Source: Escherichia coli
Lineage (GTDB): Bacteria > Pseudomonadota > Gammaproteobacteria > Enterobacterales > Enterobacteriaceae
Reading direction: 5' to 3' (one strand)
Assembly (NCBI RefSeq): GCF_003334815.1
Contig: NZ_QOWO01000008.1
DNA length: 64,000 bases
Shown here: piece by piece, positions 1-25,589 of the stretch
Numbering within the stretch: the first letter of the stretch is position 1
How the letters are laid out: each line of letters starts with the position of its first letter
Translations under genes and position numbers: made by a program
Notes under the pieces: model-generated
Databases searched by the model: none
The model's input: only the letters and a program-made list of their open reading frames with translations
What the model was told of the DNA's origin: nothing

Positions 1-512
1 TAGGGTTCGACATCGGCACTGCCGGTTCTAAACATCGGGCGATTCTGGCTATCGATGATCTGAATACGTAGACCTTCCTGGACCAGATCGATTTTGAGAT
101 GGGGACGTAACGCCCGCAGTTTCGGATCGGACTCTATCAACTGGTCGAGATCACCCCGCAATTTCCGCAATCGACTTTGCTCCATGCGTTTTTTCAGCTC
201 TTCGATGTTCGGCTGCTTATTCACTTCCCCCTGGCTTTGGGTGTAATCATCACCACCGCCGGGAATTGGGCTTTCACTATTAGAAATGCGATCGCCGCCC
301 GTAACCGCAGTCGCCAGTGGAGTCCGGAAGTACTCCGCAATCTGAATCAGCTCTTTTGGGCTGGAGATGGAGATCAGCCACATCACCAGAAAAAAGGCCA
401 TCATCGCAGTCATAAAGTCGGCATAAGCAATCTTCCACGATCCATGTGCTGCCCCGTGGCTTTTGGCTTTGCGTCGTTTGACGACAATAATCGGATGCGC
501 TTGATTCTTCAT
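1..512 (-). CDS. motB: Flagellar stator protein MotB, N-terminal part only (3' end runs off the window)
   Basis: Minus-strand ATG at 512-510 overlaps the motA stop (ATGA junction) and translates [33 protein letters not shown]..., the MotB N-terminus; open to position 1. Confidence 0.9.
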
Positions 513-1396
513 GCTTCCTCGGTTGTCGTCTGTTGTTGCGGATTTTTCACCGCACGCACATGCTCTTCCAGTTCAATAAACGACGGACGTTCGCTGGAAT
601 AGAGCGTTTTGCGACCAAACTCAACGGCGATAGGCGGTGCGTAACCGTTCAGATTAGAAAGCAGAGTGACTTTGACGCACTGCATCATTTTGCTGGTTTC
701 GGCGCTTTTCTGACGTAAAACAGTCGCTAATGGGGAAATAAATCCGTAAGCCAATAAAATGCCGAGGAAAGTCCCCACCATCGCATGTGCGATAAGCGCA
801 CCCAGCTCGGCGGCAGGACGATCGGCTGAACCTAACGCGTGAACGACCCCCATTACAGCCGCAACAATACCAAACGCCGGAAGTGAGTCCCCGACCAGCG
901 CCAGACTGTTCGCCGGGACTTCTGCCTCGCTTTCGTGCGTCTCAATCTCTTCATCCATCAGAGCTTCGATTTCGAAGGTGTTCATGTGACCGCTGATAAT
1001 CAGGCGCAGATAATCGACGATAAAATCAAGCATGACGCTATCCGCGAGGATGCGTGGGTAGCTGGCGAAGATCTCGCTCTCACGGGGATTTTCAATATCA
1101 CGTTCCAGCGAAAACATCCCCATCTGCCGCGATTTCGCCATCAACCGATAAAGCAGAGCCAGCAGATCCATATACATTGCTTTGGTGTATTTGGAGCGAC
1201 GAAACAGCAACGGCAGCGCCTTCAGCGTGCCTTTAATCGCTTTGCCATTATTGCCGACGATAAACGACCCAATCCCTGCACCGGCAATAATCACCAGTTC
1301 AGCGGGTTGATAGAGTGCTCCAAGGCTTCCACCGGTCATCAAATAACCGCCGAAAACTGTACCGAGAACAACCAGGTAACCTAATAAGATAAGCAC
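509..1396 (-). CDS. motA: Flagellar stator protein MotA (proton channel)
   Basis: 295-aa ORF in track; sequence matches recalled MotA; 4-nt overlap with motB start. Confidence 0.96.
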
Positions 1397-1464
1397 GACA
1401 TCATCCTTCCACTGTTGACCATGACAGGATGTTCAGTCGTCAGGCGTTAACGCGCGATTGGGGC

Positions 1465-1498
1465 AAAAAAAAGCAGCGGTACGTCGTTACCGCTGCTG
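1465..1498 (-). terminator. Intrinsic terminator downstream of flhC
   Basis: Minus-strand hairpin gcagcggtaacgacgtaccgctgc followed by U8 (A8 on + strand at 1465-1472), just after the flhC stop. Confidence 0.7.
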
Positions 1499-1522
1499 GA
1501 ATGTTGCGCCTCACCGTATCAG

Positions 1523-2101
1523 TTAAACAGCCTGTACTCTCTGTTCATCCAGCAGTTGTGGGATAATATCGGCAGGATTCTGGGAAAGTTTACGTCTTTT
1601 TACTGCCCGGGATGGCGGTTGACATAAGCTGCAGGCAAAGCTGCCAACAGGCTGGTGAGCGTGGGTAATAAAATTGCCGCCGCAGCAGTTGCAGCTGGAA
1701 AGTTGCAGTAATCCACTTTCAACAAACCGCACCAATGTCCAGGCACGGGTTAATGCCAGCAGTGGTCCTTCTTCTGCTTGTGGGCACTGTTCAAGGTATA
1801 AACGGTAGGCTTTGATCACCGCATCGACGCCATTACACAAACCGGTTTTCAGTAAAAACTGCCATGCATTACAGAACATCGAAGCATGAACGTTTTGTTC
1901 CCAGGTCATAAACCAGTCGGTTGAGAATGGCAGCATGCCTTTCGGCGGTGGGCTTCCGCGCAGTTCTTTATAAAGTTTTATCAGGCGTCCGCGACTTAAC
2001 TGTGTTTCGCTTTCCAGCATCTGCAAACGAGCGCCCAGGGTGATCAATTCCATTGCCAGCTGAATATCCCGCGCTTCCTGAACAATGCTTTTTTCACTCA
2101 T
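1523..2101 (-). CDS. flhC: Flagellar master regulator subunit FlhC
   Basis: 192-aa ORF matching recalled FlhC ([27 protein letters not shown]...). Confidence 0.97.
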
Positions 2102-2103
2102 GA

Positions 2104-2454
2104 TCAGGCCCTTTTCTTGCGCAGCGCTTCTTCAGGCTGATTAACATCATTCAGCAAGCGTGTTGAGAGCATGATGCCGGTATGAATTTGCTGGAGATCG
2201 TCAATGCGGGAATCTTGCGTCAACTGAGTAATCGTCTGGTGGCTGTCAAAACGGAAGTGACAAACCAGTTGATTGGTTTCTGCCAGCTTAACCATTTGCG
2301 GAAGAGTCAGTGCCGCTAACGTTGTCGCCATTTCTTCATTTATGCCGAGACGAAACATAGCGGACGCTTTGTCCTGAACAATCAAACGCTGTGCAAGTAG
2401 TAAATATGACAAGTTGATGTCATAAATGTGTTTCAGCAACTCGGAGGTATGCAT
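2104..2454 (-). CDS. flhD: Flagellar master regulator subunit FlhD
   Basis: ORF track gives 119 aa from 2463 ([10 protein letters not shown]...); recalled K-12 FlhD begins [24 protein letters not shown], so start set at 2454; either start is possible. Confidence 0.93.
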
Positions 2455-2715
2455 TATTCCCACCCAGAATAACCAACTTTATTTTTATGCGGTTTCACCG
2501 CACCCCGTGATGTCGCCGGGAAGCCCCGGTAAAAAATAATTAGCATTAGAATAGTTGCGATAAGCTGCAATAAGCAGAACCACCTTTTTGGTTTAATATG
2601 TCCTTACAAATAGAAATGGGTCTTTACACTTATCTAAGATTTTTCCTAAATCGACGCAACTGTACTCGTCACTACACGCACATACAACGGAGGGGGGCTG
2701 CGATTTTCAATAATG

Positions 2716-2731
2716 TGTGATGCAGATCACA
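2716..2731. promoter_or_regulatory. CRP binding site of the flhDC promoter
   Basis: Perfect palindrome TGTGATGCAGATCACA (TGTGA-N6-TCACA) about 270 bp upstream of the flhD start, consistent with the class I CRP site of flhDC. Confidence 0.75.
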
Positions 2732-3233
2732 CAAAACACTCAATTACTTAACATAAATGTATAAGTCATACTTTTGTTTTGGGTGTATTTCAATCTGTTA
2801 AAAAGTTTTTCGCTACGCTAGCAAGCAAAAATGAAACAGGAATAATCGAAATGGGATGTTGCGCACAGTCAAAATAACTCACCGTAAATAATCATCTGCT
2901 ATAAATAATCACTTTCATGCAATACCAGATAAGCTATTTTTAAACAGACACTTACCGCACAACAAACTAATTAAATACAAAGAAAGGCAACAATCAACTT
3001 AATGTTAATGAAATGTTTTACATATATTAACCACTTGTTTAATGCGGAGAATCAGTACACTATTTTCTTATAATTACATTTGAAATTATATGATCACCGG
3101 GAGTGATTGATTAATTGTCTTTACTAATAATCAGACTAATATTTACCTGTTTGACCGAGTTGGGATTGCGTCGTTTCTCCATTAGGAGTAAAGCTTTAAT
3201 GTCACCTGAAGTTCACAGAATAAGGAACAGGTT

Positions 3234-3662
3234 ATGAGCTATAGCAATATTCTTGTCGCTGTTGCGGTTACACCGGAAAGTCAGCAACTGCTGGCAAAAG
3301 CGGTATCTATCGCCAGGCCAGTAAAGGGACACATCAGTTTAATTACTCTCGCTTCCGACCCGGAAATGTACAATCAATTAGCTGCGCCGATGCTTGAAGA
3401 TTTACGCAGCGTGATGCAGGAAGAAACGCAAAGCTTTCTTGATAAGTTAATTCAGGATGCGGGGTATCCCGTTGACAAGACGTTTATTGCCTACGGTGAG
3501 TTAAGCGAACATATTCTGGAAGTATGTCACAAGCATCATTTCGATTTGGTGATTTGCGGTAATCACAATCACAGTTTCTTTTCGCGAGCATCCTGCTCGG
3601 CGAAAAGAGTTATTGCCTCAAGTGAGGTCGATGTGCTGTTAGTTCCACTTACGGGAGATTAA
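3234..3662 (+). CDS. uspC: Universal stress protein C
   Basis: 142-aa ORF with AGGAACAGG Shine-Dalgarno; matches recalled UspC (YecG). Confidence 0.93.
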   Translation: MSYSNILVAVAVTPESQQLLAKAVSIARPVKGHISLITLASDPEMYNQLAAPMLEDLRSVMQEETQSFLDKLIQDAGYPVDKTFIAYGELSEHILEVCHKHHFDLVICGNHNHSFFSRASCSAKRVIASSEVDVLLVPLTGD

Positions 3663-3668
3663 CCGCTC

Positions 3669-7021
<3,353 letters not shown>

Positions 7022-7035
7022 CATACTCTCCTTAC

Positions 7036-8550
7036 TCAGGCAACAGCCTGGCTGACTTTAGGCATCGCAAGGCTCAGTGCCTGACGCTCATCTGCCTGCT
7101 CGTGTAACAATTCACCGGCGATTTCACCTTCCCGCATCACCACAATCCGGTCGGCAACGCCGAGGACTTCAGGTAAGTCGCTGGAGGCAAACAGCACCGC
7201 CACGCCCTGCGCCGCCAGCGCATAAATTACGTTATATATTTCGTGCTTAGCGCCAACATCAATGCCGCGCGTAGGTTCATCCAGCAAAATGACCTTCATC
7301 TCTTCCGATAACCAGCGGCCCAGAATGGCTTTTTGCTGATTTCCGCCTGAGAGATTCATGATCAGTTGCTCCGCGCCCGGCGTTTTGATGTTGAGCGAAC
7401 GAATGTGGTGATCGGCATTGTTTTCTTCCCAACCGTTGTTGATTACACAACCGCCGAGCACATGTTTACGTCTGGCACTGATGTTGATATTGTCGCGAAC
7501 GGAGTGCACGGGAATAATGCCTTCCGCTTTGCGATCTTCCGGGCAGAGCATCATGCCTGCGGCAATGGCGTGGCTCGGTTTACGAATATCGATCGGCTGT
7601 TGGTCGATATAAACCTGACCGGCGGTGATTTGCGTCCCGCCAAACATGCCTTTCATTAATTCGCTACGCCCCGCCCCTACCAGACCAAACAGCCCAACAA
7701 TTTCACCACTGCGAACCGCCAGACTTATTGGCGTACGCACGCCTGGTGCTTTCACAGCATCAAGACGTAGGCGCTCCTCGCCATAACTACGCGGTTGCCA
7801 GCCGTAGATATCGCCAATGTCGCGCCCGACCATCGCCTGCACCAGCGCGTCGTGGTCAACCTGCTGCATATCGGTAAAGGTTTTGACATAACGTCCATCT
7901 TTAAAGACAGTAATGGCATCGCTGAGGGCAAATATTTCTTCCATACGGTGAGAAACGTATAAGATTACCCGCCCCTCTTTTCGCAGTTCACGAATAACGC
8001 GGAAAAGATTGTCGATTTCACGGGCAGAGAGGGAGCTGGTTGGCTCATCAAAGGCGATAATTTTGGCGTTACGCGCCAGCGCTTTGGCGATTTCAACCAT
8101 CTGCCACTGACCAATGGAGAGATATTTCAGCGGCGTGTCCGGGTCAATATCCATACCAAGATGTTTAAGTTGTAAACCCGCCTCATAATTCAGCAATGAG
8201 CGATTCACAATGCCGCCTTTATGCGGCAGCTGGCCGAGATAGATGTTTTCCGCGACGGTCATTTCCGGCACGAGATGCAGTTCCTGGTAAATAATCGCCA
8301 CGCCCGCGTTAAGTGCTGCGGTCGTGTCGGAAAAGGACATTTCCTGCCCATTAATCACTACAGAACCCGTGGTTGGCGCATAGTTGCCGCTGAGGATTTT
8401 TAAGAGAGTTGATTTTCCTGCGCCATTTTCACCCATCAACGCATGAACCTGACCGGCATAGCAGTCAAAACTAATATCCGTCAGCGCCTTAACGCCGGGA
8501 AACGTTTTACCGATGCCGCGAAATGAGAGATACGGGGTAGACTGTTGCAT
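7036..8550 (-). CDS. araG: Arabinose ABC transporter ATP-binding protein (duplicated ABC domains)
   Basis: Track ORF 519 aa; recalled AraG (504 aa) begins [17 protein letters not shown] at ATG 8550; two Walker A motifs ([18 protein letters not shown]). Confidence 0.95.
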
Positions 8551-8619
8551 AACGTCTCCGTGAATCACTGGTCGTTCACACCCCCTCTGCATCATGCAGA
8601 GGGGAATTTTTCCGGCAAA

Positions 8620-9609
8620 TTACTTACCGCCTAAACCTTTTTTCTCCAGTTCTTCTTTAAAGTTGTCACGCGTGATCAGTACCACGTCGGTAACTTCGGT
8701 AAATTTTGGCGGTTCAACGTCTTTTGCTACCCAGTTGTAAAGCATTTCGCTGGATTTATAGCCATGTACGTCCGGGCTTGGCAGCAGGGAACCGTAGAAG
8801 CCGGTTGCCTGTGCTTTAGACAGTTCGCTCACCGCATCCACACCGTTAATGCCAATGCCGATGATATCGGCCGCTTTAAAGCCCTGACCTTCCGTCGCGC
8901 GTACGCCGCCCAGCACGGTGCTGTCGTTCATACCGACGATCAGCCAATGTTTAACTTCCGGATGTTGAACCAGCATTGAGTTGGCAGCGTCAAATGCCCC
9001 CGGGATGTCGTTAGATTTGGTAGGTACCTGATAAATTTGTTTTTCCGGGAATCCGGCCGCTTTCAGCGCATCCATAGATCCCGTAGTACGGCGGCGGGCG
9101 GTATCCAGTTCGTTGGCGGTAATCGCCATCACCGCGCTTTCTTTGACATCCCAGCCACGTTTCTGCATCTCTTTATACAGTTCCTGGCCCTGACGTTCGC
9201 CAATTTTAGTCGCCGCCATCATCACCAGCGGAACGGTATCCATTGGCTTACCTTTGGCGTTAACAAACTGGTCATCCACGGCAATGACTTTCATATCGTA
9301 GCCACGCGCTTTCGCGACGATGGCAGAGCCGAGTTTGGGGTCCGGAGTACAAATAACGAAACCTTTTGCGCCACTGGCAGCCAGGCTGTCGATCGCGTTC
9401 AATGTTTTTTCGCCATCCGGCACGGCAATCTTAATAACCTCAAACCCTAAATCCTTCCCGGCTTTATCGGCAAACTTCCATTCGGTCTGGAACCACGGCT
9501 CTTCCGGTTGCTTCACCAGAAAACCGAGCTTCAGGTTCTCCGCCATAGCGGATTGTGACATAACGGCTGCCAGACCAATGGCTGCCAGGGCTTTAGTAAA
9601 TTTGTGCAT
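8620..9609 (-). CDS. araF: Periplasmic L-arabinose-binding protein
   Basis: Track ORF 346 aa; recalled AraF (329 aa) begins MHKFTKALAAIGLAAVMSQSAMA (signal peptide) at ATG 9609. Confidence 0.95.
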   Translation of the reverse strand: MHKFTKALAAIGLAAVMSQSAMAENLKLGFLVKQPEEPWFQTEWKFADKAGKDLGFEVIKIAVPDGEKTLNAIDSLAASGAKGFVICTPDPKLGSAIVAKARGYDMKVIAVDDQFVNAKGKPMDTVPLVMMAATKIGERQGQELYKEMQKRGWDVKESAVMAITANELDTARRRTTGSMDALKAAGFPEKQIYQVPTKSNDIPGAFDAANSMLVQHPEVKHWLIVGMNDSTVLGGVRATEGQGFKAADIIGIGINGVDAVSELSKAQATGFYGSLLPSPDVHGYKSSEMLYNWVAKDVEPPKFTEVTDVVLITRDNFKEELEKKGLGGK

Positions 9610-9860
9610 GGTTCTCTCCAGCTTTAGTGTCGTTTTGTGTAGGGCAAAAACGAATGACATTCGTTAAATTAATCGGAAAACAAAGCATTACCTTTTAACT
9701 AAAAGATAAGTGACTGTGTTGACATAGTTTTAGCGAGAAATTAATTCTCCATAGGAGAGCAATATCACATCGCAGAATTACAGTGAGAACGTGCATAAAT
9801 TTAGCGGGAAAAGACATAAGGGAAAGCCAATTTGTCAGACAAATTGTCGAATGCACAGCA

Positions 9861-9880
9861 GATTAATCCATAAGATTAGC
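9861..9880 (+). promoter_or_regulatory. Candidate AraC binding half-site upstream of araFGH
   Basis: ATTAATCCATAAGATTAGCC closely resembles the araBAD araI1 element (TATCCATAAGATTAGC); about 250 bp upstream of araF in inverted orientation. Confidence 0.5.
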
Positions 9881-10405
9881 CTGGAAATCCTTGTTGTCTT
9901 TGGTACCCATGCGGGATGTCTTCTTTTTAACCAGTCAATAGGCCGCATTACCTGGCGTTGAGTTTTTGAAATGGTGTAATAACCGCAACTCAAAGATGTG
10001 GAAAATGCACGTCATTCATTTCGTCATTAATTATCACTGTGCTCATTAATTAACAGAACACGTATAATGAGAGCCATCTCGCAAAAATGAAAAAACGTTT
10101 TATAAAATCATCACTTCATCATGAATTCAAATTCATTGATTAATATCAACAAGATACAAAAAGCACTATCATTAAAATTCATTGCAGTTACATTGATTTC
10201 ATCAATGAAATGTAAAAATATATAAACTTGATGATTTAAGCATTTTCTTATACCCGTTCAGACGTTATTCTTATTTCAGATCATCGTCAGAATTGACTCC
10301 ACGATCACATTTCGGACCGGCAGAAAGGAATTATTCTGCAAACAGTAATTATGGTGTTTTGATTTATCTTGCACCTCTCCACTTCTGGATATAAGGATAT
10401 TAGGT

Positions 10406-10909
10406 ATGGCAACCGCTGGAATGCTTCTCAAACTCAACTCTCAAATGAACCGCGAGTTTTACGCATCCAATCTCTACCTTCACCTGAGTAACTGGTGTTC
10501 TGAACAGAGTCTGAACGGCACCGCCACTTTCCTTCGCGCCCAGGCACAGAGTAATGTGACCCAAATGATGCGCATGTTTAACTTTATGAAGAGTGTCGGC
10601 GCTACCCCCATCGTTAAAGCCATTGATGTTCCCGGTGAAAAACTGAACTCTCTGGAAGAACTGTTCCAAAAAACGATGGAAGAATACGAGCAACGTTCTA
10701 GTACGTTGGCACAGTTAGCCGATGAAGCGAAAGAACTGAATGATGATTCAACCGTCAATTTCCTGCGCGATCTGGAAAAAGAACAGCAGCATGATGGTCT
10801 GTTGCTGCAAACCATTCTTGATGAAGTGCGCAGTGCGAAACTTGCGGGTATGTGCCCTGTGCAGACCGACCAACATGTTCTGAATGTCGTGTCACACCAG
10901 CTGCATTGA
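10406..10909 (+). CDS. ftnB: Ferritin-like protein FtnB
   Basis: 167-aa ORF matching recalled FtnB (YecI). Confidence 0.94.
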
Positions 10910-10954
10910 TCATCATCGGCGCTAATGCATTGCGCCGATGAAGGTTTTGAGAAA

Positions 10955-10989
10955 CCGCTGCCTCATCTGTTTGAAGCAGCGGTTTTTTT
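10955..10989 (+). terminator. Intrinsic terminator after ftnB
   Basis: Hairpin CCGCTGCCTCATCTGTTTGAAGCAGCGG followed by T7. Confidence 0.7.
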
Positions 10990-11239
10990 AATGGGATTCA
11001 CCCTGTGGGGTAAACTTGAGTTCAATAAGCGCGATGGCTTTTTGGATTGCCCGCATGGTGACCGGGTCTGCGGCGGCGGGATGGTTAGTAAAGTCGATAT
11101 TCTTCAGCTGACTGGACATTTTTTCACGAACTTCAACGGGCGCGATTACATCGAGAACATCCAGAATTTGTTTGATAACCAACTGGCAAGCAACCACATC
11201 AGAAACCAATTCCTGATCGGCATTCAGCGGCTGGGACAT
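10988..11239 (-). CDS. yecJ: DUF2766 family protein YecJ
   Basis: 83-aa ORF matching recalled YecJ. Confidence 0.88.
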
Positions 11240-11324
11240 CGTAAACTCCTGATAGCATTTTGAAAGCCGTTATAGTAGCGACTTCACATCTTCAGCGATA
11301 GTCACATCCACCGTCATCAGGACA

Positions 11325-11352
11325 CAAAAAAACCTGCCGGAGCAGGTTTTTT
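11325..11352 (-). terminator. Bidirectional intrinsic terminator (azuC side)
   Basis: A8-CCTGC-CGGA-GCAGG-T6: GC stem flanked by A and T runs, functional in both orientations; abuts the azuC stop. Confidence 0.7.
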
Positions 11353-11353
11353 G

Positions 11354-11440
11354 TTATCGGAACATATTGCCTGGCGGTACGTCTTTGAACGTCTTGCAAT
11401 AGTTATTGAACATACTTTTCAGGATTTTGCGCAGTTTCAT
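11354..11440 (-). CDS. azuC: 28-aa small protein AzuC, encoded on the dual-function AzuCR (IsrB) RNA
   Basis: Hand-translated minus-strand ORF MKLRKILKSMFNNYCKTFKDVPPGNMFR-stop, matching recalled AzuC; below the 60-aa ORF track cutoff. Confidence 0.85.
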   Translation of the reverse strand: MKLRKILKSMFNNYCKTFKDVPPGNMFR

Positions 11441-11702
11441 CGCGGCACTCCGACCATTTGTTATACAGGTGTTATTGTCTTTGCGCTTATAATATGACAA
11501 CCATCACAAAAATCAATCTTTATGTGATACAAATCACATAAATACCCCTTTAATGTTATAAAAATGATAATCAAAAAACAGCCCCCCTATTTCTGACACC
11601 TACAGATGGCAAGAAATAGCGCCTGCCAGGCGTCTTTTCCGGCCATTGTCGCAGCACTGTAACGCGTAAAATAGTGCTTTCTCTTACTCTTCTGGCTGGA
11701 CC

Positions 11703-12026
11703 ATGAGACTTCTGATTCTGACTCTTTCATTAATAACGCTGGCGGGGTGTACGGTTACTCGCCAAGCCCATGTGAGCGAAGTTGACGCGGCAACAGGTAT
11801 TGTACGGTTAGTTTATGACCAGGCTTTTTTGCAGCATGCCCATACCGATCGTTATGTCAGTCGCGGGATCGCCGATCGCGCATGCCAGCAGGAAGGCTAT
11901 ACCCACGCGGTCCCCTTTGGTCAGCCAGTAGGCAACTGTAGCCTTTTTGCGGGTTCCTTATGTTTGAATACGGAATTCACTTTGTCATATCAGTGCCATC
12001 ATTCCGCCTTCCCTGTCTTTCTCTAA
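11703..12026 (+). CDS. yecR: Lipoprotein YecR
   Basis: 107-aa ORF with lipobox LAGC; matches recalled YecR. Confidence 0.9.
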   Translation: MRLLILTLSLITLAGCTVTRQAHVSEVDAATGIVRLVYDQAFLQHAHTDRYVSRGIADRACQQEGYTHAVPFGQPVGNCSLFAGSLCLNTEFTLSYQCHHSAFPVFL

Positions 12027-12196
12027 ATATTTTAATCAGCGAGGGGATCTTCGCTGATTAAAGAAATAGCGGTAATGCGTTTTATTCCCATTCGTATTTT
12101 TAATAATTGAAGTTTATATTTTACCTTTTGCAAATAATAAAATAACAAATTATAGTGACGCCACAGCAACAAATATAACCTTTGTGGAGCACTATC

Positions 12197-12694
12197 ATGC
12201 TGAAACCAGAAATGATTGAAAAACTTAATGAGCAGATGAACCTGGAACTGTACTCTTCACTGCTTTATCAGCAAATGAGCGCCTGGTGCAGCTATCATAC
12301 CTTCGAAGGTGCTGCCGCGTTCCTGCGCCGTCACGCCCAGGAAGAGATGACGCATATGCAGCGTCTGTTTGATTACCTGACTGATACCGGCAATTTACCG
12401 CGTATTAATACCGTTGAATCTCCGTTTGCTGAATATTCCTCACTTGATGAGTTATTCCAGGAAACCTATAAACACGAACAATTAATCACCCAGAAAATTA
12501 ACGAACTGGCTCATGCTGCAATGACCAATCAGGACTACCCAACATTTAATTTCCTGCAATGGTATGTTTCTGAGCAGCATGAAGAAGAGAAACTGTTCAA
12601 ATCGATTATTGATAAATTAAGCCTGGCAGGCAAAAGCGGCGAAGGTCTGTATTTTATCGACAAAGAACTCTCTACCCTCGACACACAAAACTAA
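12197..12694 (+). CDS. ftnA: Ferritin FtnA
   Basis: Track ORF starts at 12182 (MWSTIM...); recalled FtnA (165 aa) begins [19 protein letters not shown] at ATG 12197. Confidence 0.95.
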
Positions 12695-12701
12695 TGCTCT
12701 C

Positions 12702-12730
12702 CGGCGGCAGGTTTACTGCCGCCGTTTCAA
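12702..12730 (+). terminator. Intrinsic terminator between convergent ftnA and yecH
   Basis: Hairpin CGGCGGCAG-GTTTA-CTGCCGCCG followed by TTTCAAAT. Confidence 0.6.
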
Positions 12731-12731
12731 A

Positions 12732-12971
12732 TCAGTGACGGCAAATCTTACTCTGATCGGTCGAAAAACCGTCTTTCGAAGGTATAAATTTGCCTTTTGC
12801 TGCCAGAAACGCTACCAGCTCTCCCGCTGTCATCCCTTCTGCCGAGCAGGTGTGAAAACGTGCCTGTTCACCAAAACGCGCTTTAATCGCAGCTTCCAGA
12901 CTGGCATGCGTATATTGCTCGCCTGATTCAATCATCATATTTAACACTTCATGACCGTGAATAGAGTCCAT
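12732..12971 (-). CDS. yecH: DUF2492 family protein YecH
   Basis: 79-aa ORF matching recalled YecH. Confidence 0.88.
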   Translation of the reverse strand: MDSIHGHEVLNMMIESGEQYTHASLEAAIKARFGEQARFHTCSAEGMTAGELVAFLAAKGKFIPSKDGFSTDQSKICRH

Positions 12972-13161
12972 CGTCCCTCCTCAAAAAAAGCCTAGCGTAG
13001 CGATTGCCGCTTATGAAGACTTTGCGCCAGCGCAGGACTGAATGCTTTTTATTGTACATTTATATTTACACCATATGTAACGTCGGTTTGACGAAGCAGC
13101 CGTTATGCCTTAACCTGCGCCGCAGATATCACTCATAAAGATCGTCAGGACAGAAGAAAGC

Positions 13162-14373
13162 GTGAAAAACAGAACCCTGGGAAGTGTTTTTATCGTGGCG
13201 GGAACCACAATTGGCGCAGGCATGCTGGCAATGCCGCTGGCTGCGGCCGGTGTTGGTTTTAGCGTTACGTTAATCTTGTTGATTGGGCTTTGGGCGTTGA
13301 TGTGCTACACGGCGCTATTACTGCTGGAGGTGTACCAGCATGTTCCGGCAGATACCGGTCTGGGCACGCTGGCAAAACGCTATCTGGGACGCTACGGTCA
13401 ATGGCTGACGGGCTTCAGTATGATGTTCTTAATGTATGCTCTGACTGCGGCATACATCAGCGGTGCCGGTGAATTGTTGGCCTCCAGCATCAGCGACTGG
13501 ACAGGTATTTCTATGTCGGCAACCGCTGGCGTGCTGTTGTTCACTTTTGTTGCCGGTGGCGTGGTTTGTGTCGGAACTTCACTGGTCGATTTATTTAACC
13601 GTTTTCTGTTCAGCGCCAAGATTATTTTTCTGGTGGTAATGCTGGTACTACTGCTGCCGCATATTCACAAAGTGAATCTTTTAACCCTGCCGTTGCAACA
13701 GGGGCTGGCTCTGTCTGCAATCCCGGTGATTTTTACGTCGTTTGGTTTTCACGGTAGCGTGCCGAGTATTGTCAGCTATATGGATGGCAACATTCGTAAG
13801 CTACGCTGGGTGTTTATAATCGGTAGTGCGATCCCCCTGGTGGCATATATTTTCTGGCAGGTGGCGACGCTTGGCAGCATTGATTCAACAACCTTTATGG
13901 GATTGCTGGCTAATCATGCTGGATTAAACGGGCTGTTACAGGCGTTACGCGAAATGGTGGCCTCTCCGCATGTTGAGCTGGCAGTGCATTTATTTGCTGA
14001 TTTAGCCCTCGCCACGTCATTTCTCGGCGTTGCGTTAGGCTTATTTGATTATCTGGCTGATTTATTTCAGCGTTCAAATACCGTTGGTGGACGGTTGCAA
14101 ACTGGTGCAATTACGTTTCTGCCGCCGTTGGCGTTTGCACTGTTTTATCCACGAGGATTTGTGATGGCGCTGGGTTACGCCGGTGTGGCGCTGGCGGTAC
14201 TGGCATTGATTATCCCTTCGCTGTTGACCTGGCAAAGCAGAAAGCACAATCCTCAGGCGGGTTACCGGGTCAAAGGTGGTCGTCCGGCGCTGGTGGTGGT
14301 GTTTCTCTGTGGTATTGCTGTGATTGGCGTGCAATTTTTGATTGCGGCAGGGTTGTTACCAGAAGTGGGGTGA
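13162..14373 (+). CDS. tyrP: Tyrosine-specific permease
   Basis: 403-aa polytopic ORF with GTG start; matches recalled TyrP. Confidence 0.95.
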
Positions 14374-14434
14374 TCAGATAGCCTCAAATTCCTTATTGGG
14401 TGCCAGAATTAACGCTGACACCCAATTTGGCCTC

Positions 14435-15100
14435 TTAATGCAGGCAGCACTGCTTAAATTTCTTACCACTACCGCACGGGCAAGGATCGTTACGCCCCGG
14501 TTTCTCTTCTGCTTTGATCGGTTGCTGAACAGCTTTTTCCTGCGGATGCGCCATCCAGTACGCATGTAGATCAAGCGCCGCCAGTCGAATGGCATCTACG
14601 CTCTCTTCAAACGCTTCTGGCGACATCTTTTCTACCCGCTCGAAGTTTTCCTCAGTACCGTGCAGCGCAATCGCCTCCAGCGCTGGTTTTAACGAATCGG
14701 GCAACGTTGACCAGTCAGAAAGTGCCACGCCCCGCATATAGCCAAAGCACCACTCCTCAACAATCGTCAGCTCGCTGCCATCAACTTCTCGCAAGCCGAA
14801 TAACGGCTCAAACTGCTCCGGGAATTCGTTCAGACGCTCTGCGGTATCGGCCATATGTTGAAAAGCCAGATTCATAAAGCGCGTCATCTCTTTCTCTGAC
14901 GCCCAGCGCGGCACATAGTCAGCCCCACCCCACACGGCAACCAGCCACTGTTCCGGTTCAATCTCTTGCGGAGAACTCAACACCGCCGTCAATAAACCGT
15001 CCAGCTCCGCCACATCAAGGATGGCGTGGTCAGTGTTGTATTTGGTCAGAATATCGTCCAGCCATTCCAACTCACTTTCGTTTAACGGTCCCGTTTTCAT
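14435..15100 (-). CDS. yecA: UPF0149/SEC-C motif protein YecA
   Basis: 221-aa ORF ending in the SecA-like metal-binding motif [13 protein letters not shown]; matches recalled YecA. Confidence 0.93.
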
Positions 15101-15226
15101 ACGCTTTTCCTTGTGGATCTCAACTCGCCAGCACCTATCTTACATGCCGGTCCGTATCAGAGATACTTTTTGAGTGGCTTTGCTGGTGATTAAAAATTAA
15201 GGAGGGTGTAACGACAAGTTGCAGGC

Positions 15227-15252
15227 ACAAAAAAACCACCCGAAGGTGGTTT
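15227..15252 (-). terminator. Intrinsic terminator of the glyW-cysT-leuZ tRNA operon
   Basis: Minus-strand hairpin AACCACC-TTCG-GGTGGTT followed by U7, 44 nt downstream of the leuZ 3' end. Confidence 0.75.
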
Positions 15253-15295
15253 CACGACACTGCTTATTGCTTTGATTTTATTCTTATCTTTCCCA

Positions 15296-15382
15296 TGGTA
15301 CCCGGAGCGGGACTTGAACCCGCACAGCGCGAACGCCGAGGGATTTTAAATCCCTTGTGTCTACCGATTCCACCATCCGGGC
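15296..15382 (-). tRNA. leuZ: tRNA-Leu (anticodon UAA)
   Basis: Reverse complement reads GCCCGGATGGTGGAATCGGTAGACACAAGGGATTTAAAATCCC...GGGTACCA, 87 nt with encoded CCA. Confidence 0.95.
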
Positions 15383-15394
15383 TCGGGAAGAAAG

Positions 15395-15468
15395 TGGAGG
15401 CGCGTTCCGGAGTCGAACCGGACTAGACGGATTTGCAATCCGCTACATAACCGCTTTGTTAACGCGCC
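15395..15468 (-). tRNA. cysT: tRNA-Cys (anticodon GCA)
   Basis: Reverse complement reads GGCGCGTTAACAAAGCGGTTATGTAGCGGATTGCAAATCCG...GCGCCTCCA, 74 nt. Confidence 0.95.
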
Positions 15469-15522
15469 AAATTCTTCAGGCCTTTCAGCCAGACATCCGC
15501 TTGACGCCGATGTCTTTTAAAC

Positions 15523-15598
<76 letters not shown>

Positions 15599-15749
15599 AT
15601 TCATCAAGCAATCAGTTAATCACTTGATTTTATTATCGTCTGGCAATCAGTGCCGCCGTTCGATGCGTTGCATTCTACTTACCTGGCGCGATGAGTCAAC
15701 GATATTTTTCACCACTTTTGATCGTTTGCTGAAAATTACGCCGAAACGA

Positions 15750-16298
15750 TCACTGATCAAGCAAATCTGCACGCGCAGCGCTCAAATATTGCAACATTGA
15801 CCACAGAGTCAGTACCGCAGCCACAAAGAAAAGTGCAATACCGGCGTACTCAACCCAAATGTTCGGACGCCACAGCAGCCATGCCAACGCCACCATCTGG
15901 GCAGTGGTTTTCACTTTCCCAATCCAGGAGACGGCCACGCTACTGCGTTTACCCAACTCCGCCATCCATTCGCGTAGCGCAGAAATAATAATTTCACGGG
16001 CGATCATCGTTGCCGCCGGTAATGTCACCCACCAGCTGTGATAATGCTCGGTTACCAGCACCATGGCGATAGCCACGAGAACTTTATCTGCCACAGGGTC
16101 AAGGAAAGCACCAAACCGGGTACTCTGGTTCCAGCGGCGTGCCAGAAAACCATCGAACCAGTCAGTCACCGCCGCGACGCAGAAAATGAGCGCGGCGGCA
16201 AACGGCGACCAGGTGACAGGCAGATAAAAGACCAATACAAAGAATGGGATAAGGATGACACGGAACAGTGTAAGCAACGTAGGGATATTAAATTGCAT
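15750..16298 (-). CDS. pgsA: CDP-diacylglycerol--glycerol-3-phosphate 3-phosphatidyltransferase
   Basis: 182-aa ORF matching recalled PgsA; CDP-alcohol phosphatidyltransferase motif region DWFDGFLAR. Confidence 0.95.
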
Positions 16299-16354
16299 AA
16301 TGACGGGTAACTATCTGTTGTCAGTAAGATTACCCCTATGTTGCTACAGAGACA

Positions 16355-18187
16355 TCAATGTTTCAACGACCAGAAGATCTTTTCTGCCAGACCTTGCGAA
16401 ATACCCGGCACTTTTGCAATTTCCTCGACGCTGGCGTTACGTAAACCTTGCAAACCGCCCATATATTTCAACAACATTTGCCGACGTTTTGGCCCGACGC
16501 CTTCAATGGTTTCCAGGGAACTGGTATTTTTGACCTTCGCCCGTTTTTTACGGTGCCCGCCAATCGCGTGATCATGTGATTCATCGCGAATATGCTGGAT
16601 AACATGCAGCGCGGGTGAATCTGGCGGCAAACTAAATCCCTCACCTTCCGGCTCAAAGAACAGCGTTTCCAGTCCAGCCTTACGATCTGCTCCTTTGGCA
16701 ACGCCAAGTAGCAGCGGATGATTTTTATCCCATGAGACATCCAGTTCGGCGAAGACATTTTTCGCCTGCGCAAGCTGGCCTTTGCCGCCGTCGATAAGGA
16801 TCACATCCGGGATCTTACTGTCGTCAATGGCTTTACCATAACGCCGACGCAGCACCTGATTCATCGCCGCATAATCATCGCCCGGCGTGATGCCTGTAAT
16901 GTTATAGCGCCGATACTCCGCACGCAGCGGGCCGTTAGCATCAAACACCACACAGGAAGCGACGGTTTGTTCGCCCATGGTATGGCTGATGTCAAAGCAC
17001 TCCATCCGCTTCACTTCCGGCAATTTCAACACGCTGGCAAGCGCGGTCAGTCGCTGGTGAACGGTAGATTGCTGCGAAAGTTTGCTGGTTAAGGCCGTCG
17101 CCGCATTGGTGCGCGCGAGTTTCAGATAACGCGCCCTATCGCCGCGAGGTTTGGTTTGAACATTAATCTTGCGTCCCGCCAGTTCTGAAAGGGAATCGGC
17201 GAGCAGCGTTTTATCGCTAAGATTAAAATCGAGCAGGATCTCACCCGGTAAGGTGCGCATCTGGCTGCCTTGTAAATAGAACTGGCCTACGAAGGTTTCT
17301 ACCACCTCGCTCAGTTCCGTACCGCCAGGCACTTTCGGGAAATAGCTGCGGCTGCCGAGCACTTTGCCCTGACGAATGAACAATACGTGGACACAAGCCA
17401 TGCCCGCATCGAACGCCACACCAATAACGTCGAGGTCGTCGCCGGTATTGGAAACGAATTGTTTTTCGGTGACGCGTCGCACCGCCTGAATTTGGTCGCG
17501 AATACGTGCAGCTTCTTCAAACTCCAGATTCTGGCTGGCAGTTTCCATACGACTAATGAGTTGCGTAAGCACCTGATCATCTTTGCCAGACAAAAACAGG
17601 CGCACATACTCGACCTGCTGAGCGTATTCTTCTTCACTCACCAGTCCTTCAACGCACGGTCCCAGACAGCGCCCTATCTGGTATTGCAGACACGGACGCG
17701 AGCGATTGCGATAAACACTATTTTCGCACTGGCGAATGGGGAAAATCTTTTGCAGTAGCGCCAGTGTTTCACGTACGGCATAGCCATTCGGGAACGGGCC
17801 GAAATATTCACCTTTGGCATGCTTCGCACCACGATGCATCGCCAGACGCGGGTGGGTATCACCACTCAGGAAGATAAAAGGATATGATTTATCATCGCGT
17901 AGCAAAACGTTGTAACGCGGCTGATAGAGTTTGATGTAGTTGTGTTCCAGCAACAGCGCTTCGGTTTCTGTGTGAGTAACCGTTACATCAATTTGCTGGA
18001 TCTGGGCGACCAGCGCTTCGGTTTTGCGCGAAGCGAGGTTGCTACGGAAATAGCTGGAAAGCCGTTTTTTCAGGTCTTTCGCTTTGCCGACATAGATAAC
18101 CGTACCACCAGCATCGTACATGCGATAAACGCCTGGCTGGCTGGTTACGGTTTTTAAAAACGCTTTTGCGTCAAACTGATCACTCAC
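16355..18187 (-). CDS. uvrC: Excinuclease ABC subunit C
   Basis: 610-aa ORF matching recalled UvrC; start overlaps uvrY stop by 4 nt. Confidence 0.96.
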
Positions 18188-18840
18188 TGACTTGATAATG
18201 TCTCCGCATTACACAGACCATGGCGAATTGCCAGGTGAGTCAGCTCAACATCGCCATGAATGTTTAGTTTACTGAACATACGATAGCGGTAGCTGTTCAC
18301 CGTTTTCGGACTGAGATTGAGCTGTTCTGAGATCTCATTGACCTTCTGGCCCTTGGTGATCATCAGCATAATCTGCAATTCACGTTCAGACAAACTGGCA
18401 AATGGGCTTTCTGTTTTTTCTGGTTCGATCTGGCTTAACGCCATTTGTTGAGCGATGTCAGAAGCAATGTAACGCTGCCCTGAATAGACAGAACGAATCG
18501 CACTCACGACTTCCTGCGGAGCCGCGCCTTTGCTGAGGTAGCCCGCAGCACCGGCCTGCATGACTTTCGCTGGTAAAGGGTTTTCTGTATGGACGGTAAG
18601 CATGATGATTTTGACATCAGCTGTGGAACGCGCGATTTTACGCGTCGCCTCAAGACCGCCAATGCCCGGCATACTCATGTCCATTAGCACCACGTCAACG
18701 GCATTTGTCCGGCACCACTTAACGGCGTCTTCACCGCACGATGCCTCACCGACGACTTTTATACCCTTTATATCTTCCAGAATGCGTCGTATCCCTGCGC
18801 GCACCAGTTCGTGGTCATCAACAAGTAGAACGTTGATCAA
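18184..18840 (-). CDS. uvrY: Response regulator UvrY (BarA partner, FixJ/LuxR family)
   Basis: 218-aa ORF with receiver domain and C-terminal HTH; matches recalled UvrY. Confidence 0.96.
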
Positions 18841-19298
18841 AGGAATATCTCCAGAAATAGGGATAACGCTACTGATAGTTAGTCATTCGTATATTAGCGG
18901 TTTTTATTGCAACTTTGAAACGTTAAAAATGGTGGGTATTCGATTTTTCTCTCGTTTTTGTCAATTCGATTGTCCACAGTTATGGTCACGCCCGTCACCA
19001 ACGGCTTACCGGATCGTTTCACAGTAAGCCCTGCGACGAAATGTGACAAAAATTACCTTTATTCAGCAAAAATGAAAATCAGCCCGCTGAATATGTAACA
19101 TTAATTAACCCGAACAATACGGGCAAAAAACATTCATGATAAAAATATTTATTGGTCATTATATTAACGCATTTAATAGCACCGTTGACGATACGCTCAA
19201 AAAACAACCACTGCTATTTTTAGCAAAGCTTATGGTATACTCCGCCGCCTTAACATTTTTCACCGCAAATTTTCATTGCAACATGACGAGGAAAATAA

Positions 19299-19523
19299 AT
19301 GAGTACGCCTGATTTTTCTACTGCCGAGAATAATCAAGAACTGGCAAATGAAGTCTCCTGCCTGAAAGCGATGCTGACGCTGATGCTGCAGGCGATGGGA
19401 CAAGCTGACGCGGGCCGCGTGATGTTAAAGATGGAAAAACAGCTTGCGCTGATCGAAGACGAAACCCAGGCTGCAGTATTTTCCAAAACGGTTAAGCAAA
19501 TTAAACAAGCCTACCGTCAGTAA
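19299..19523 (+). CDS. yecF: DUF2594 protein YecF
   Basis: 74-aa ORF matching recalled YecF. Confidence 0.88.
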
Positions 19524-19590
19524 TATAAAACCGGCTGATAGCGTGCCTTTCAGCCGGTTTTTGCATCTGGCACGCAGGACAGAAAAGAGA

Positions 19591-20313
19591 TCAAATTAAG
19601 CCAGTAGCGGCCGCGTAACAGGCAACCTGGGTCTTATTCGGTGCATTGATTTTTTTCTGCATGTTTTTCTGATGGAAATTGACCGTATTCTCAGAGATTG
19701 ACAAAATCATCGCTATCTCTGCTGATGTCTTCCCTTCCGCCGTCCATTTCAAAATTTCTTTTTCGCGCTTGCTGAAATTCATCTCTGGCGTCATCACTAT
19801 TTCATCATTTAAACGCATCAGAGCCATCAGACTTTCGCGCACCAGTAACTGCATTTTTAATTGCAGTTCATCACTAAGAATGGGTATTTCGCGCGCGCTG
19901 CTACGGGAAAAGGACAAAAAGCCCAGCGCCCGGTTTGGCAGCATTAAATACTGAGTGACACCGCGGCGTAAACCATGTGCGCGCGCGGCTTCCCATAACG
20001 GCTGTGCTTCGCTGAATAAGTCATCATTCCACATTAAATGGCCCTGACTAAAGTTTTCAGGGTTCAGCACCGGATCAATTGCGAGAAAGTTTTTTGCCTG
20101 ATAATAACTAACCCACGCCTCAGGGTAATTGGTGTAGAAAGCCACTTTAGGTCGCGTGAATGGTACCGGGTGGCGAACACATAACGAATAGTAATCGTAC
20201 TCTAGCTGCTGAGCCTGAAGCTCTATTTCATGGTAGACCTCTTCTGCGGCCTCCATCCTCTGAAAACGCAACAGCATCGTGCGACGCCAGCTGAAAAAAT
20301 CCGTATCCTGCAT
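19591..20313 (-). CDS. sdiA: LuxR-family orphan quorum-sensing regulator SdiA
   Basis: Track ORF starts at 20325 (MRFTMQDTDFF...); recalled SdiA (240 aa) begins MQDTDFFSWRRTMLLRFQ at ATG 20313. Confidence 0.94.
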   Translation of the reverse strand: MQDTDFFSWRRTMLLRFQRMEAAEEVYHEIELQAQQLEYDYYSLCVRHPVPFTRPKVAFYTNYPEAWVSYYQAKNFLAIDPVLNPENFSQGHLMWNDDLFSEAQPLWEAARAHGLRRGVTQYLMLPNRALGFLSFSRSSAREIPILSDELQLKMQLLVRESLMALMRLNDEIVMTPEMNFSKREKEILKWTAEGKTSAEIAMILSISENTVNFHQKNMQKKINAPNKTQVACYAAATGLI

Positions 20314-20542
20314 AGTAAACCGCAACGCCCCTGAGAGTGAGTATCATTTATAATGATAATTCAAACTATCACATAAATAAGATTTATATATAATTTATAT
20401 TATTCAGGCAATGAATTACTTTTGCAAGCCATCGCATTCTCTTATGTTATTAATGAGTTATGCTGATTTGTTAAGCTGTTTTATCACGCTTGAAATGGCG
20501 TCCCGCCCCGACAGGTGAATCGTCGGGGCTGATTTTTTCTTA

Positions 20543-21295
20543 TTATTGCAGCAGAAACTTCTCGAGGAACTGGCGGGTGCGAGGCTGCTGGGGATCGGCA
20601 AATAACGCTTTTGCTGCCCCCTGCTCGACTATCCGCCCCTGGTCCATAAAAATCGCCCGGTCCGCAACATCCCGGGCAAAGCTCATTTCGTGCGTCACAA
20701 TCACCATCGTGCGCTTTTCCTGCGCCAGCTGACGGATGGTGTTCAGGACTTCGCCCACCAGCTCTGGATCCAGCGCCGACGTTGGCTCGTCAAACAAAAT
20801 CACCTCAGGACGCATTGCCAGCGCACGTGCAATCGCAACACGTTGCTGTTGACCGCCAGACAAACGACGTGGATAGCTGGTTTCTTTACCGGCCAGCCCA
20901 ACTTTCGCCAACAGCTCGCGAGCGCGCGCCGTGGCCTCTTCTTTCGGTTCGCCTTTGACGATCACCGGCCCTTCAATAATGTTTTCCAGCACCGTACGAT
21001 GCGGAAACAAATTAAAGTTCTGGAAGACAAACCCGACGTGCTGACGCAACTGGCGAATCAGCGATTTTTGCTGACTTAATGAACGTGCAGTATCAATAGT
21101 GATATCGCCAACGGTGATAGTTCCCGCTTCCGGTTGTTCCAGCAGATTTATGCTGCGTAGCAACGTGGTTTTGCCGGAACCACTCGGACCGATAATTGCC
21201 ACCACTTCGCCAGGCTTTACCTCAAGGTCGATACCGTGCAGCACCGTCTGACCGTGAAATTTTTTCACCAGGTTCTTAACTTCAATGGCACTCAT
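20543..21295 (-). CDS. tcyN: Cystine ABC transporter ATP-binding protein
   Basis: 250-aa ORF with Walker A GPSGSGKTT and ABC signature LSGGQQQR; matches recalled YecC/TcyN. Confidence 0.94.
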   Translation of the reverse strand: MSAIEVKNLVKKFHGQTVLHGIDLEVKPGEVVAIIGPSGSGKTTLLRSINLLEQPEAGTITVGDITIDTARSLSQQKSLIRQLRQHVGFVFQNFNLFPHRTVLENIIEGPVIVKGEPKEEATARARELLAKVGLAGKETSYPRRLSGGQQQRVAIARALAMRPEVILFDEPTSALDPELVGEVLNTIRQLAQEKRTMVIVTHEMSFARDVADRAIFMDQGRIVEQGAAKALFADPQQPRTRQFLEKFLLQ

Positions 21296-21960
21296 TTTGG
21301 TTCTCTCTCCTGGCGATTAAGTTGATTCTCAAAATGGTTCTGCAACGTCGATAATACTGTCGCCATGATCCAGTAGATGAGCGAAGCCGCCAGGTACATG
21401 GTGAACACCTCCAGCGTGCGCGAGGTAATCAACTGCGCCTGACGGAACAGCTCCGGCACCTGAATTGTCGCGGCCAGCGACGTATCTTTTACCAGGCTGA
21501 TAAAGCTGTTCGACAGCGGCGGCAACGCCACCCGCGCCGCCTGTGGCAAAATCGCGCGACGCATAGTCTGCCATGGCGTCATACCAATACTGGCAGCTGC
21601 TTCCCACTGACCTTTATCAATAGAAGAAATGGCGGCGCGCAGCGTTTCGGCAGCATAGGCGGCAGTGTTGAGCGACAGACCAATCATTGCTGACGGAATG
21701 GGATCTAATTCGATACCAAACTGCGGCAGGCCGTAATAGATCATAAACAGTTGTGCGATGAGCGGTGTACCACGAAAAATAGAGATATAAAAACGCGCCA
21801 GCCAGCGCACGGGCCAGATTGGCGACAGGCGCATCAGCGCGAGAATAAACCCGAGCAGTAAGCCAAAAAACATGCCGCCGATACTGAGTTGCAGCGTATA
21901 CCCAGCCCCTTTCAGCAGGAACGGCAAGGAATCAATAACCAGTTGTATACTTTCTTGCAT
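21292..21960 (-). CDS. tcyL: Cystine ABC transporter permease
   Basis: 222-aa membrane ORF matching recalled YecS/TcyL; 4-nt overlap with tcyN. Confidence 0.93.
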   Translation of the reverse strand: MQESIQLVIDSLPFLLKGAGYTLQLSIGGMFFGLLLGFILALMRLSPIWPVRWLARFYISIFRGTPLIAQLFMIYYGLPQFGIELDPIPSAMIGLSLNTAAYAAETLRAAISSIDKGQWEAAASIGMTPWQTMRRAILPQAARVALPPLSNSFISLVKDTSLAATIQVPELFRQAQLITSRTLEVFTMYLAASLIYWIMATVLSTLQNHFENQLNRQEREPK

Positions 21961-21974
21961 GAGCGTTCCCGGAG

Positions 21975-23866
<1,892 letters not shown>

Positions 23867-23953
23867 ATTCACCCCGAATGTTGTTATGTCTGTTTGCAGT
23901 GTAGAGCCATTGTTTGTAAACACAAAAACAACTCCGCTACATCTTATTCTTAT

Positions 23954-24505
23954 TTAATATATATCAGAAGAAGGCAGGCTGGAGGATTTCTGCACAAGTC
24001 CGGTACAGGTTTGGCGCTGATAGTGTTGATACTTCCGTAACGCGATGCGGTAATTGTTGGTGCTGGTGGTGGGCAGCCACGGGGCGAGGATTTCATCAAG
24101 GAAACCGTCCTGCAGCTGTTCGAGGGAAATATTTTGCTCGTGTAGATGATTCCCCAAACGGCGCAAACGAACGACATATTCACGCACCGTACCTGGGCTC
24201 ATTTCAGTTTGCTCAAAAAGAAATTGCTTAAAGCCGATAATATCGAAAAAATCACTCTGCGTTTTGCAGTGTAAATCACCGCAAAATCGGCACAATGCCG
24301 CCCATGATTGTTGTTCCACTTGCCAGCCATTTTCATCAAGCAGCGTGTCCAGGCGGGAAATCTCGATTTTATTCACTATTTTGCCGTCGCGAACTAAGGT
24401 AATGCGATCGAGTAATTTACGGCAATGCGCACAATGGGTCTGGCTGTGTTTAAAGTCTTTAAGATAGCGGCTTAATGGCCGTCTTTTCAGGTGCTGCACC
24501 ATCAT
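23954..24505 (-). CDS. fliZ: Flagellar/curli regulatory protein FliZ
   Basis: Track ORF 195 aa; recalled FliZ (183 aa) begins MMVQHLKRRPLSRYLKDF at ATG 24505. Confidence 0.93.
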   Translation of the reverse strand: MMVQHLKRRPLSRYLKDFKHSQTHCAHCRKLLDRITLVRDGKIVNKIEISRLDTLLDENGWQVEQQSWAALCRFCGDLHCKTQSDFFDIIGFKQFLFEQTEMSPGTVREYVVRLRRLGNHLHEQNISLEQLQDGFLDEILAPWLPTTSTNNYRIALRKYQHYQRQTCTGLVQKSSSLPSSDIY

Positions 24506-24550
24506 TAAGAACTCCTGGTAGTCAAAGTTAAAGTGCGGCATTTACTGACG

Positions 24551-25270: not shown

Positions 25271-25391
25271 GATAAACAGCCCTGCGTTATATGAGTTATC
25301 GGCATGATTATCCGTTTCTGCAGGGTTTTTAATCGGACGATTAGTGGGTGAAATGAGGGGTTATTTGGGGGTTACCGGTAAATTGCGGACA

Positions 25392-25415
25392 GAAAAAACC
25401 CCGCCGGTGGCGGGG
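25392..25415 (-). terminator. Intrinsic terminator at the end of the fliC 3' UTR
   Basis: Minus-strand hairpin CCCCGCC-ACCG-GCGGGG followed by U6. Confidence 0.75.
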
Positions 25416-25447
25416 AAGCACGTTGCTGACAAATTACCATTCATGTT

Positions 25448-25546
<99 letters not shown>

Positions 25547-25589
25547 AATTTGGCGTTGCCGTCAGTCTCAGTTAATCAGGTTAGGACGA

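Follow-up and report, generated by a model that had tools for sequence, protein, structure and literature searches.

The window analysed here is a stretch of 64,000 nucleotides from an Escherichia coli genome, and the locus under study is the spacer between yecJ and yecR (11240..11702, 463 bp), in which azuC is placed by annotation between yecJ and yecR/ftnA. Alignment of this spacer with E. coli K-12 MG1655 gave 463 identical columns out of 463 (gaps=0). The features recognized in it, listed in the order in which the minus strand is read, are the following.

11523..11538, no strand assigned: distal CRP box, a perfect TGTGA-N6-TCACA found by pattern search, centred at about -48.5 and overlapping the published FNR site
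11489..11516, minus strand: sigma-70 promoter with -35 TTGATT, a 16-nt spacer and -10 TATTAT, found by consensus scan
11493..11508, no strand assigned: proximal CRP box with one mismatch, found by pattern search, centred at about -18.5 and overlapping the core promoter
11324..11482, minus strand: AzuCR transcript (AzuR / IsrB / IS092), from the RefSeq azuR span and the published start to 3' end
11465..11471, minus strand: FnrS pairing site CACCUGU, complementary to the FnrS 5' end GCAGGUG (FnrS sequence taken from K-12)
11448..11451, minus strand: Shine-Dalgarno GGAG, 7 nt upstream of the ATG, read from the sequence; GG.G is invariant and the A nearly so in 58 sequences
11354..11440, minus strand: azuC CDS, 28 codons plus TAA (87 nt), encoding the small amphipathic membrane protein AzuC, 100% identical to K-12 b4663
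11369..11398, minus strand: predicted AzuR base-pairing segment (transcript nt 85-114, codons 15-24), from a local-duplex calculation
11326..11352, minus strand: intrinsic terminator made of A6, CCUGC, a UCCG loop, GCAGG and U7, from its fold, its run lengths and a Term-seq 3' end

The identification of azuC, which the initial annotation had proposed from the letters of the sequence, is borne out by the 100% identity of the spacer to K-12 and by the RefSeq annotation, in which a CDS named azuC occupies the position equivalent to 11354..11440 both in K-12 and in an identical strain. A RefSeq ncRNA, azuR, is annotated in K-12 as well, at 1987843..1988001, which corresponds to 11324..11482 of the window (window coordinates are K-12 coordinates minus 1976519, a conversion valid only within 2752..25868). 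In K-12, azuC is b4663, and azuR is also named isrB, IS092 or b4434. The alignment to K-12 that had been suggested as a check was run; since the 463-bp spacer is 100% identical to K-12 and holds no indel, a frameshift in azuC is ruled out. The AzuC peptide matched the NCBIfam equivalog NF033642, “stress response protein AzuC”, with 75.9 bits over residues 2-27 (cutoff 30, E = 1.3e-21), and one protein accession, WP_010723106.1, is common to the 6 E. coli strains checked. A scan of the 48-aa TTG-initiated frame that ends in azuC against one copy of Pfam-A, probably an older one, returned no match; PF28150 is listed in the protein database for all homologues of this 48-aa frame, which was also the query used in the protein homologue search. 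The azuC gene and the AzuCR transcript have been annotated in K-12 since 2008-2010, and both functions were worked out in 2022.

The locus agrees with azuCR of K-12 in its spacer, in its flanking genes (ftnB, yecJ, yecR and ftnA) and in its promoter, CRP boxes, FnrS site, ORF and terminator; no difference exists at the locus, and the comparison differs only in that the host strain of the window is not K-12. Relative to MG1655, and noted at 1..2760 and 25868..26847, this strain lacks the IS1 upstream of flhD, has a different central region of fliC, which does not align, and is 97.5-99.4% identical elsewhere. Nothing contradicts the identification of azuC, which this strain difference leaves unaffected. 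Because the window strain is not K-12, experimental evidence is carried over from K-12 on the strength of the identical sequence, and translation, GlpD binding, target repression and the effects of CRP, FnrS and ProQ are taken from published work on K-12. The analysis itself established the sequence identity, the anatomy and conservation of the locus, the purifying selection on the peptide, its amphipathicity and the complementarity to cadA. That the locus is azuCR of E. coli, including the account of promoter, protein and RNA given here, is in our judgement very nearly certain.

Conservation was assessed at two scales. Within the species, 5420 of 5426 complete E. coli genomes contain the spacer locus, 6 genomes being without a match and 10 having a partial match only. 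In the O157:H7 strain Vac_07.1, azuC is absent together with the whole otsBA-araFGH-ftnB-yecJ-azuC stretch; an IS1203 element (IS3 family) lies there between yecR and a remnant universal-stress-protein gene (annotated UspA, in the position of uspC by synteny). Across genera, a scan with a degenerate codon pattern found an intact azuC ORF of 27-28 codons in 57 species-representative genomes from about 25 genera of Enterobacteriaceae, including Escherichia, Citrobacter, Enterobacter, Klebsiella, Raoultella, Leclercia, Lelliottia, Buttiauxella, Cedecea, Siccibacter and Franconibacter. This pattern was derived from the peptide and fixes 14 of 27 codons, so that the resulting set is biased to conserved peptides. 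In the alignment of 58 sequences, the promoter hexamers, CRP half-sites, FnrS block, Shine-Dalgarno sequence and terminator are conserved or nearly invariant. A sample independent of the ORF was formed by five E. coli alleles picked among the ones least identical in DNA to the spacer as a whole. In these alleles the 162 bases upstream of the CRP box show 19 variable columns, counting indels as well as substitutions; one base is changed in the 87 of the ORF (third position of codon 5, synonymous) and 0 in the terminator, and the same AzuC accession is annotated in all five.

Transcription of AzuCR has been reported to start at K-12 position 1988001, which is 11482 in the window (PMC8915982), and the -10 hexamer found by consensus scan ends 7 nt upstream of this start. 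The -35 hexamer is almost invariant and the -10 highly conserved in the 58-sequence alignment. The span first proposed for the gene, 11325..11440, holds for the ORF and the terminator and has to be extended by a 42-nt 5' UTR and the promoter, to about 11540. Both CRP boxes keep their half-sites across genera while their 6-nt spacers vary (58 sequences), and within E. coli the five divergent alleles change the distal box in its spacer only. In K-12 azuCR is repressed by CRP (PMC8915982), and the position of the proximal box, over the core promoter, fits this repression. The published FNR site (K-12 1988039-1988058, PMC12266141) falls at 11520..11539. Perfect TGTGA-N6-TCACA sequences also occur at 2716..2731 and 55338..55353, and the window holds six matches to the CRP consensus with one mismatch or fewer, versus 1.9 expected by chance.

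Pairing of the sRNA FnrS has been placed 25-31 nt upstream of azuC's ORF (PMC8915982), and the block around this site, AACACCTG(C/T)ATAACA, hardly varies from genus to genus among the 58 aligned sequences. A second minus-strand 3' end, 4 nt upstream of the azuC ATG, is given by Adams et al. 2021 in their Term-seq tables at K-12 1987963 (window 11444); it implies an AzuCR 5' fragment of about 39 nt carrying the FnrS pairing site; a further 3' end is listed inside yecJ, at K-12 1987707.

At the other end of the transcript, the minus strand reads A6 (11352..11347), CCUGC (11346..11342), the loop UCCG, GCAGG (11337..11333) and U7 (11332..11326), that is, a GC-rich stem of 5 bp lengthened by A-U pairs and followed by the U-run. 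A minus-strand 3' end is mapped at K-12 1987844 (window 11325), one base beyond the U-run, in published Term-seq tables; the published length of 164 nt (PMC8915982) would put the end at 11319. The 45-nt terminator segment folds at -18.0 kcal/mol on the minus strand (z = -5.6, 0 of 200 shuffles as good). In the 58 sequences 99.4% of the cells of the helix pair, with almost no variation, and neither covariation nor compensatory changes were found in this alignment, in which the stem hardly varies; for this reason the structure rests on thermodynamics and on the mapped 3' end. The consensus terminator scan did not list the azuC terminator, probably because its stem extends into the U-run. In six sequences, from Cedecea, Buttiauxella, Dryocola and Enterobacter sp., 12-15 extra bases separate the azuC stop from the terminator, and in Intestinirhabdus alba the stem differs (TCGGC.../...CCGG) and yecJ is not adjacent.

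The hairpin had been described as a symmetric A8-stem-T6 terminator directly after the ORF. Its symmetry, its T6 and its place one base past the stop are as described, and the A8 is in fact an A7: read on the plus strand, the element is A7 (11326-11332), the stem and T6 (11347-11352). A further part of that description was that it acts in both directions, and here the structure stands, with A- and T-run flanks and a fold on both strands (-14.3 kcal/mol and z = -3.0 for the 45-nt segment on the plus strand), whereas a function on the plus strand is not supported. A functional bidirectional terminator would stop azuCR on the minus strand and transcription arriving on the plus strand from the ftnB/yecJ side, and the near invariance of the A-run in 58 genomes, although it is non-coding, could be cited for it together with the symmetry. 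However, yecJ points the same way as azuC in 54 of 57 genomes, which leaves the hairpin without a convergent partner, and ftnB, the sole plus-strand gene facing it, has its own terminator-like hairpin about 340 nt earlier. Among the Term-seq 3' ends listed, that at K-12 19878xx is on the minus strand only, and no plus-strand 3' end at 19878xx is found among the table entries listed. The conserved A-run has moreover another explanation, as a feature of ProQ ligands (PMC7367173), and we consider a bidirectional function unlikely.

The hairpin on the ftnB side was read by eye at 10953..10988 (plus strand), in the gap between the convergent genes ftnB and yecJ, as AAACCGCTGC...GCAGCGG and then T7. 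It probably serves as the terminator of ftnB; its minus-strand tail is TTTCTC only, and it looks weaker for yecJ.

In ProQ ligands the terminator hairpin is preceded on its 5' side by an A-rich motif, which base-pairs with the U-tail and disfavours Hfq (Stein et al. 2020, PMC7367173). AzuCR resembles these RNAs in having A6 directly before the stem and able to pair with the U-tail, and differs from them in that it also binds Hfq and in that the main text of PMC7367173 has 0 mentions of IsrB or AzuC. In K-12, AzuCR co-precipitates with ProQ, its level falls and the RNA is destabilised in a proQ mutant, and it binds Hfq as well (PMC8915982). The A-run would therefore be better explained as a ProQ-type A-rich flank than as a device for plus-strand termination, an interpretation that we infer from the shape of the element and from these reports.

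Directly downstream of azuC and co-directional with it lies yecJ (DUF2766, function unknown), an arrangement found in 54 of 57 genomes and also in E. coli, the start of yecJ being 160-220 nt after the azuC ATG in most of the 57. On the other side, yecR lies about 550 nt upstream of azuC in Escherichia, versus about 2.9 kb in most other genera. Between the terminator and yecJ, a TACTAT at 11272..11277 (minus strand), about 25-30 nt upstream of the yecJ Shine-Dalgarno sequence, is kept in at least 80% of 58 genomes and its flanks are not. From this pattern it is probably the -10 of a promoter of yecJ's own; no conserved -35 partner was seen in the 58 genomes.

This arrangement raises the possibility of translation-coupled attenuation, in which azuC would be a leader ORF and a ribosome at its stop codon would sit over the 5' arm of the hairpin, so that transcription could continue into yecJ. 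The conserved adjacency of the two genes would suit such a device, as would the stop codon, which in 42 of 58 sequences lies 1 nt from the A-run, and the 3' end placed by Adams et al. 86 nt upstream of the yecJ ORF. If it were true, the azuCR locus would gain a third, cis-acting role. On the other hand, the conserved TACTAT suggests a separate promoter for yecJ, the distance from stop to terminator is 12-15 nt in the Cedecea/Buttiauxella-like group, and the peptide, unlike typical leader peptides, is strongly conserved and has a function in trans (PMC8915982). The text of PMC8915982 describes the 164-nt RNA only and no longer species. Attenuation of yecJ is, in our estimation, decidedly improbable, even more so than termination on the plus strand.

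The ORF itself starts with the ATG at 11440 and ends with the TAA at 11356..11354 on the minus strand; its translation, MKLRKILKSMFNNYCKTFKDVPPGNMFR, followed by the stop, is read exactly as first reported, an intact frame of 28 codons. As had also been pointed out, this is below the 60-aa threshold for ORFs, and the program-made ORF list has azuC only within a 48-aa ORF initiated at TTG (11354..11500), whose tail it forms. Within 2 kb around azuC the same list has 33 ORFs of 20 aa or more, and a length of 28 codons alone is not beyond chance expectation here. That azuC is a real gene follows instead from its identity to K-12 azuC, from the HMM score and from the pattern of conservation.

Variation in azuC is concentrated at third codon positions and is mostly synonymous. 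Over 56 distinct sequences pN/pS is 0.12 for all codons; because the search pattern had fixed 14 codons, the ratio was recomputed on the 13 free ones, giving 0.26. Among these free codons V21, P22, P23, M26 and F27 are invariant despite synonymous change. By this comparison, the AzuC peptide is under purifying selection in about 25 enterobacterial genera, as judged from substitutions. The peptide has a net charge of +6 and consists of an amphipathic, cationic helix and, after it, a conserved VPPG-x-MF tail. For residues 1-21 the helical hydrophobic moment is 0.53-0.60, which 0.6-1.4% of shuffles surpass. This computed amphipathicity and charge fit the published description of an amphipathic, membrane-associated protein that binds GlpD. 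In K-12, AzuC is membrane-associated, binds GlpD and raises its dehydrogenase activity (Raina et al. 2022, PMC8915982), and its translation is documented by SPA tagging and ribosome binding (PMC8915982). Ribosome profiling, which had been proposed as a check of translation, lists azuC among the sORFs most strongly induced in severe acid stress (PMC10746267). Although short ORFs are common around azuC and the RNA was originally described as the sRNA IS092/IsrB (PMC8915982), there is next to no chance that the ORF is a fortuitous frame within a purely non-coding IsrB, as first annotated: such an RNA is excluded by the substitution pattern (the low pN/pS, third-position variation and invariant residues over about 25 genera) and by the published detection of the protein (SPA tagging, ribosome binding and ribosome profiling), and the Shine-Dalgarno sequence kept at a fixed spacing and the NCBIfam equivalog match also speak against it.

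The transcript is a regulator in its own right. The dual function stated for K-12 in the initial annotation, that of a small protein AzuC and a base-pairing RNA AzuR/IsrB, agrees with the experiments of Raina et al. 2022 (PMC8915982), in which AzuR represses cadA and galE (PMC8915982). Duplexes with these targets were predicted by a windowed local duplex search. Transcript nt 85-114 paired with positions -15..+14 of cadA, at the ribosome binding site, at -26.9 kcal/mol, 1 of 100 shuffles being as good. The same nt 85-114 may pair with galE +713..+739, predicted at -26.9 kcal/mol, which is the best duplex restricted to the ORF; unrestricted searches favoured other regions. The coding and pairing regions overlap, and translation and riboregulation therefore compete.

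This overlap sets AzuCR apart from otherwise similar systems. SgrS/SgrT of E. coli, VcdRP of Vibrio cholerae and AzuCR all belong to carbon metabolism and combine, in a short transcript, a small protein with a base-pairing RNA; SgrS and VcdRP keep their coding and pairing regions apart, whereas in AzuCR the pairing region lies within the ORF and the two activities compete (PMC8915982). In contrast to SgrS and VcdRP, AzuCR also depends on ProQ more than on Hfq (PMC8915982).

When AzuCR was compared with Rfam 15, no family was matched at its gathering score, and none of the matches was a family named IsrB, AzuR or IS092; this missing match says little against AzuR membership. The best match was the Salmonella sRNA family STnc370, with 33.4 bits versus a gathering score of 54, obtained through the terminator hairpin only. 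Its sub-threshold matches, at 11294..11358 on the plus strand and 11321..11404 on the minus strand (33.4 and 27.0 bits), rest almost wholly on a near-identical terminator hairpin, AAAAAAACCUGCC..GCAGGUUUUUU. The scores being below threshold, the resemblance to STnc370 was taken as that of generic terminators.

The predicted pairing segment differs by one base at most within Escherichia. Across genera, the synonymous sites of codons 15-24 are as variable as elsewhere in the ORF, with no extra constraint outside Escherichia: third-position entropy is high, 1.2-1.8, at codons 17, 21 and 23, within the segment, and low, 0.37-0.72, at codons 2-9, including L7 and R4, which are 4- to 6-fold degenerate. 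If there is any constraint at the RNA level across genera, it thus seems, from these entropies, to act at the 5' end of the ORF and not in the pairing region. With no extra synonymous constraint on the pairing segment beyond Escherichia, the protein-coding gene may be the older part and riboregulation a recent addition specific to the lineage, a reading that is more likely than the attenuation of yecJ.

The mode of action that we assign to azuCR begins at the sigma-70 promoter, which fires a minus-strand transcript at 11482 and which cAMP-CRP represses through the two boxes, one of them overlapping the core promoter. The transcript, of about 160 nt, stops at the strong intrinsic terminator one base past the stop codon, and GGAG-N7-AUG drives translation of the 28-residue AzuC. 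In anaerobiosis the sRNA FnrS pairs with the 5' UTR and blocks the synthesis of AzuC. The AzuR segment inside the ORF is predicted to pair with the ribosome binding site of cadA and a site within galE, and both genes are repressed.

The finding is correct and already known: azuC/AzuCR is a well-studied dual-function small gene, and the locus has little weight as a discovery since both of its functions were published in 2022 (PMC8915982). Its interest is first that of a positive control, in which a reading of raw sequence recovers a real 28-codon gene that length filters miss. The yecJ-yecR spacer is densely functional, with a promoter, two CRP boxes, an sRNA target site, an ORF and a terminator. 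To what is known of azuCR the comparison adds small refinements, namely purifying selection on the peptide over about 25 genera, a tight linkage to yecJ, and a terminator symmetry that would be better understood as a feature of a ProQ ligand.
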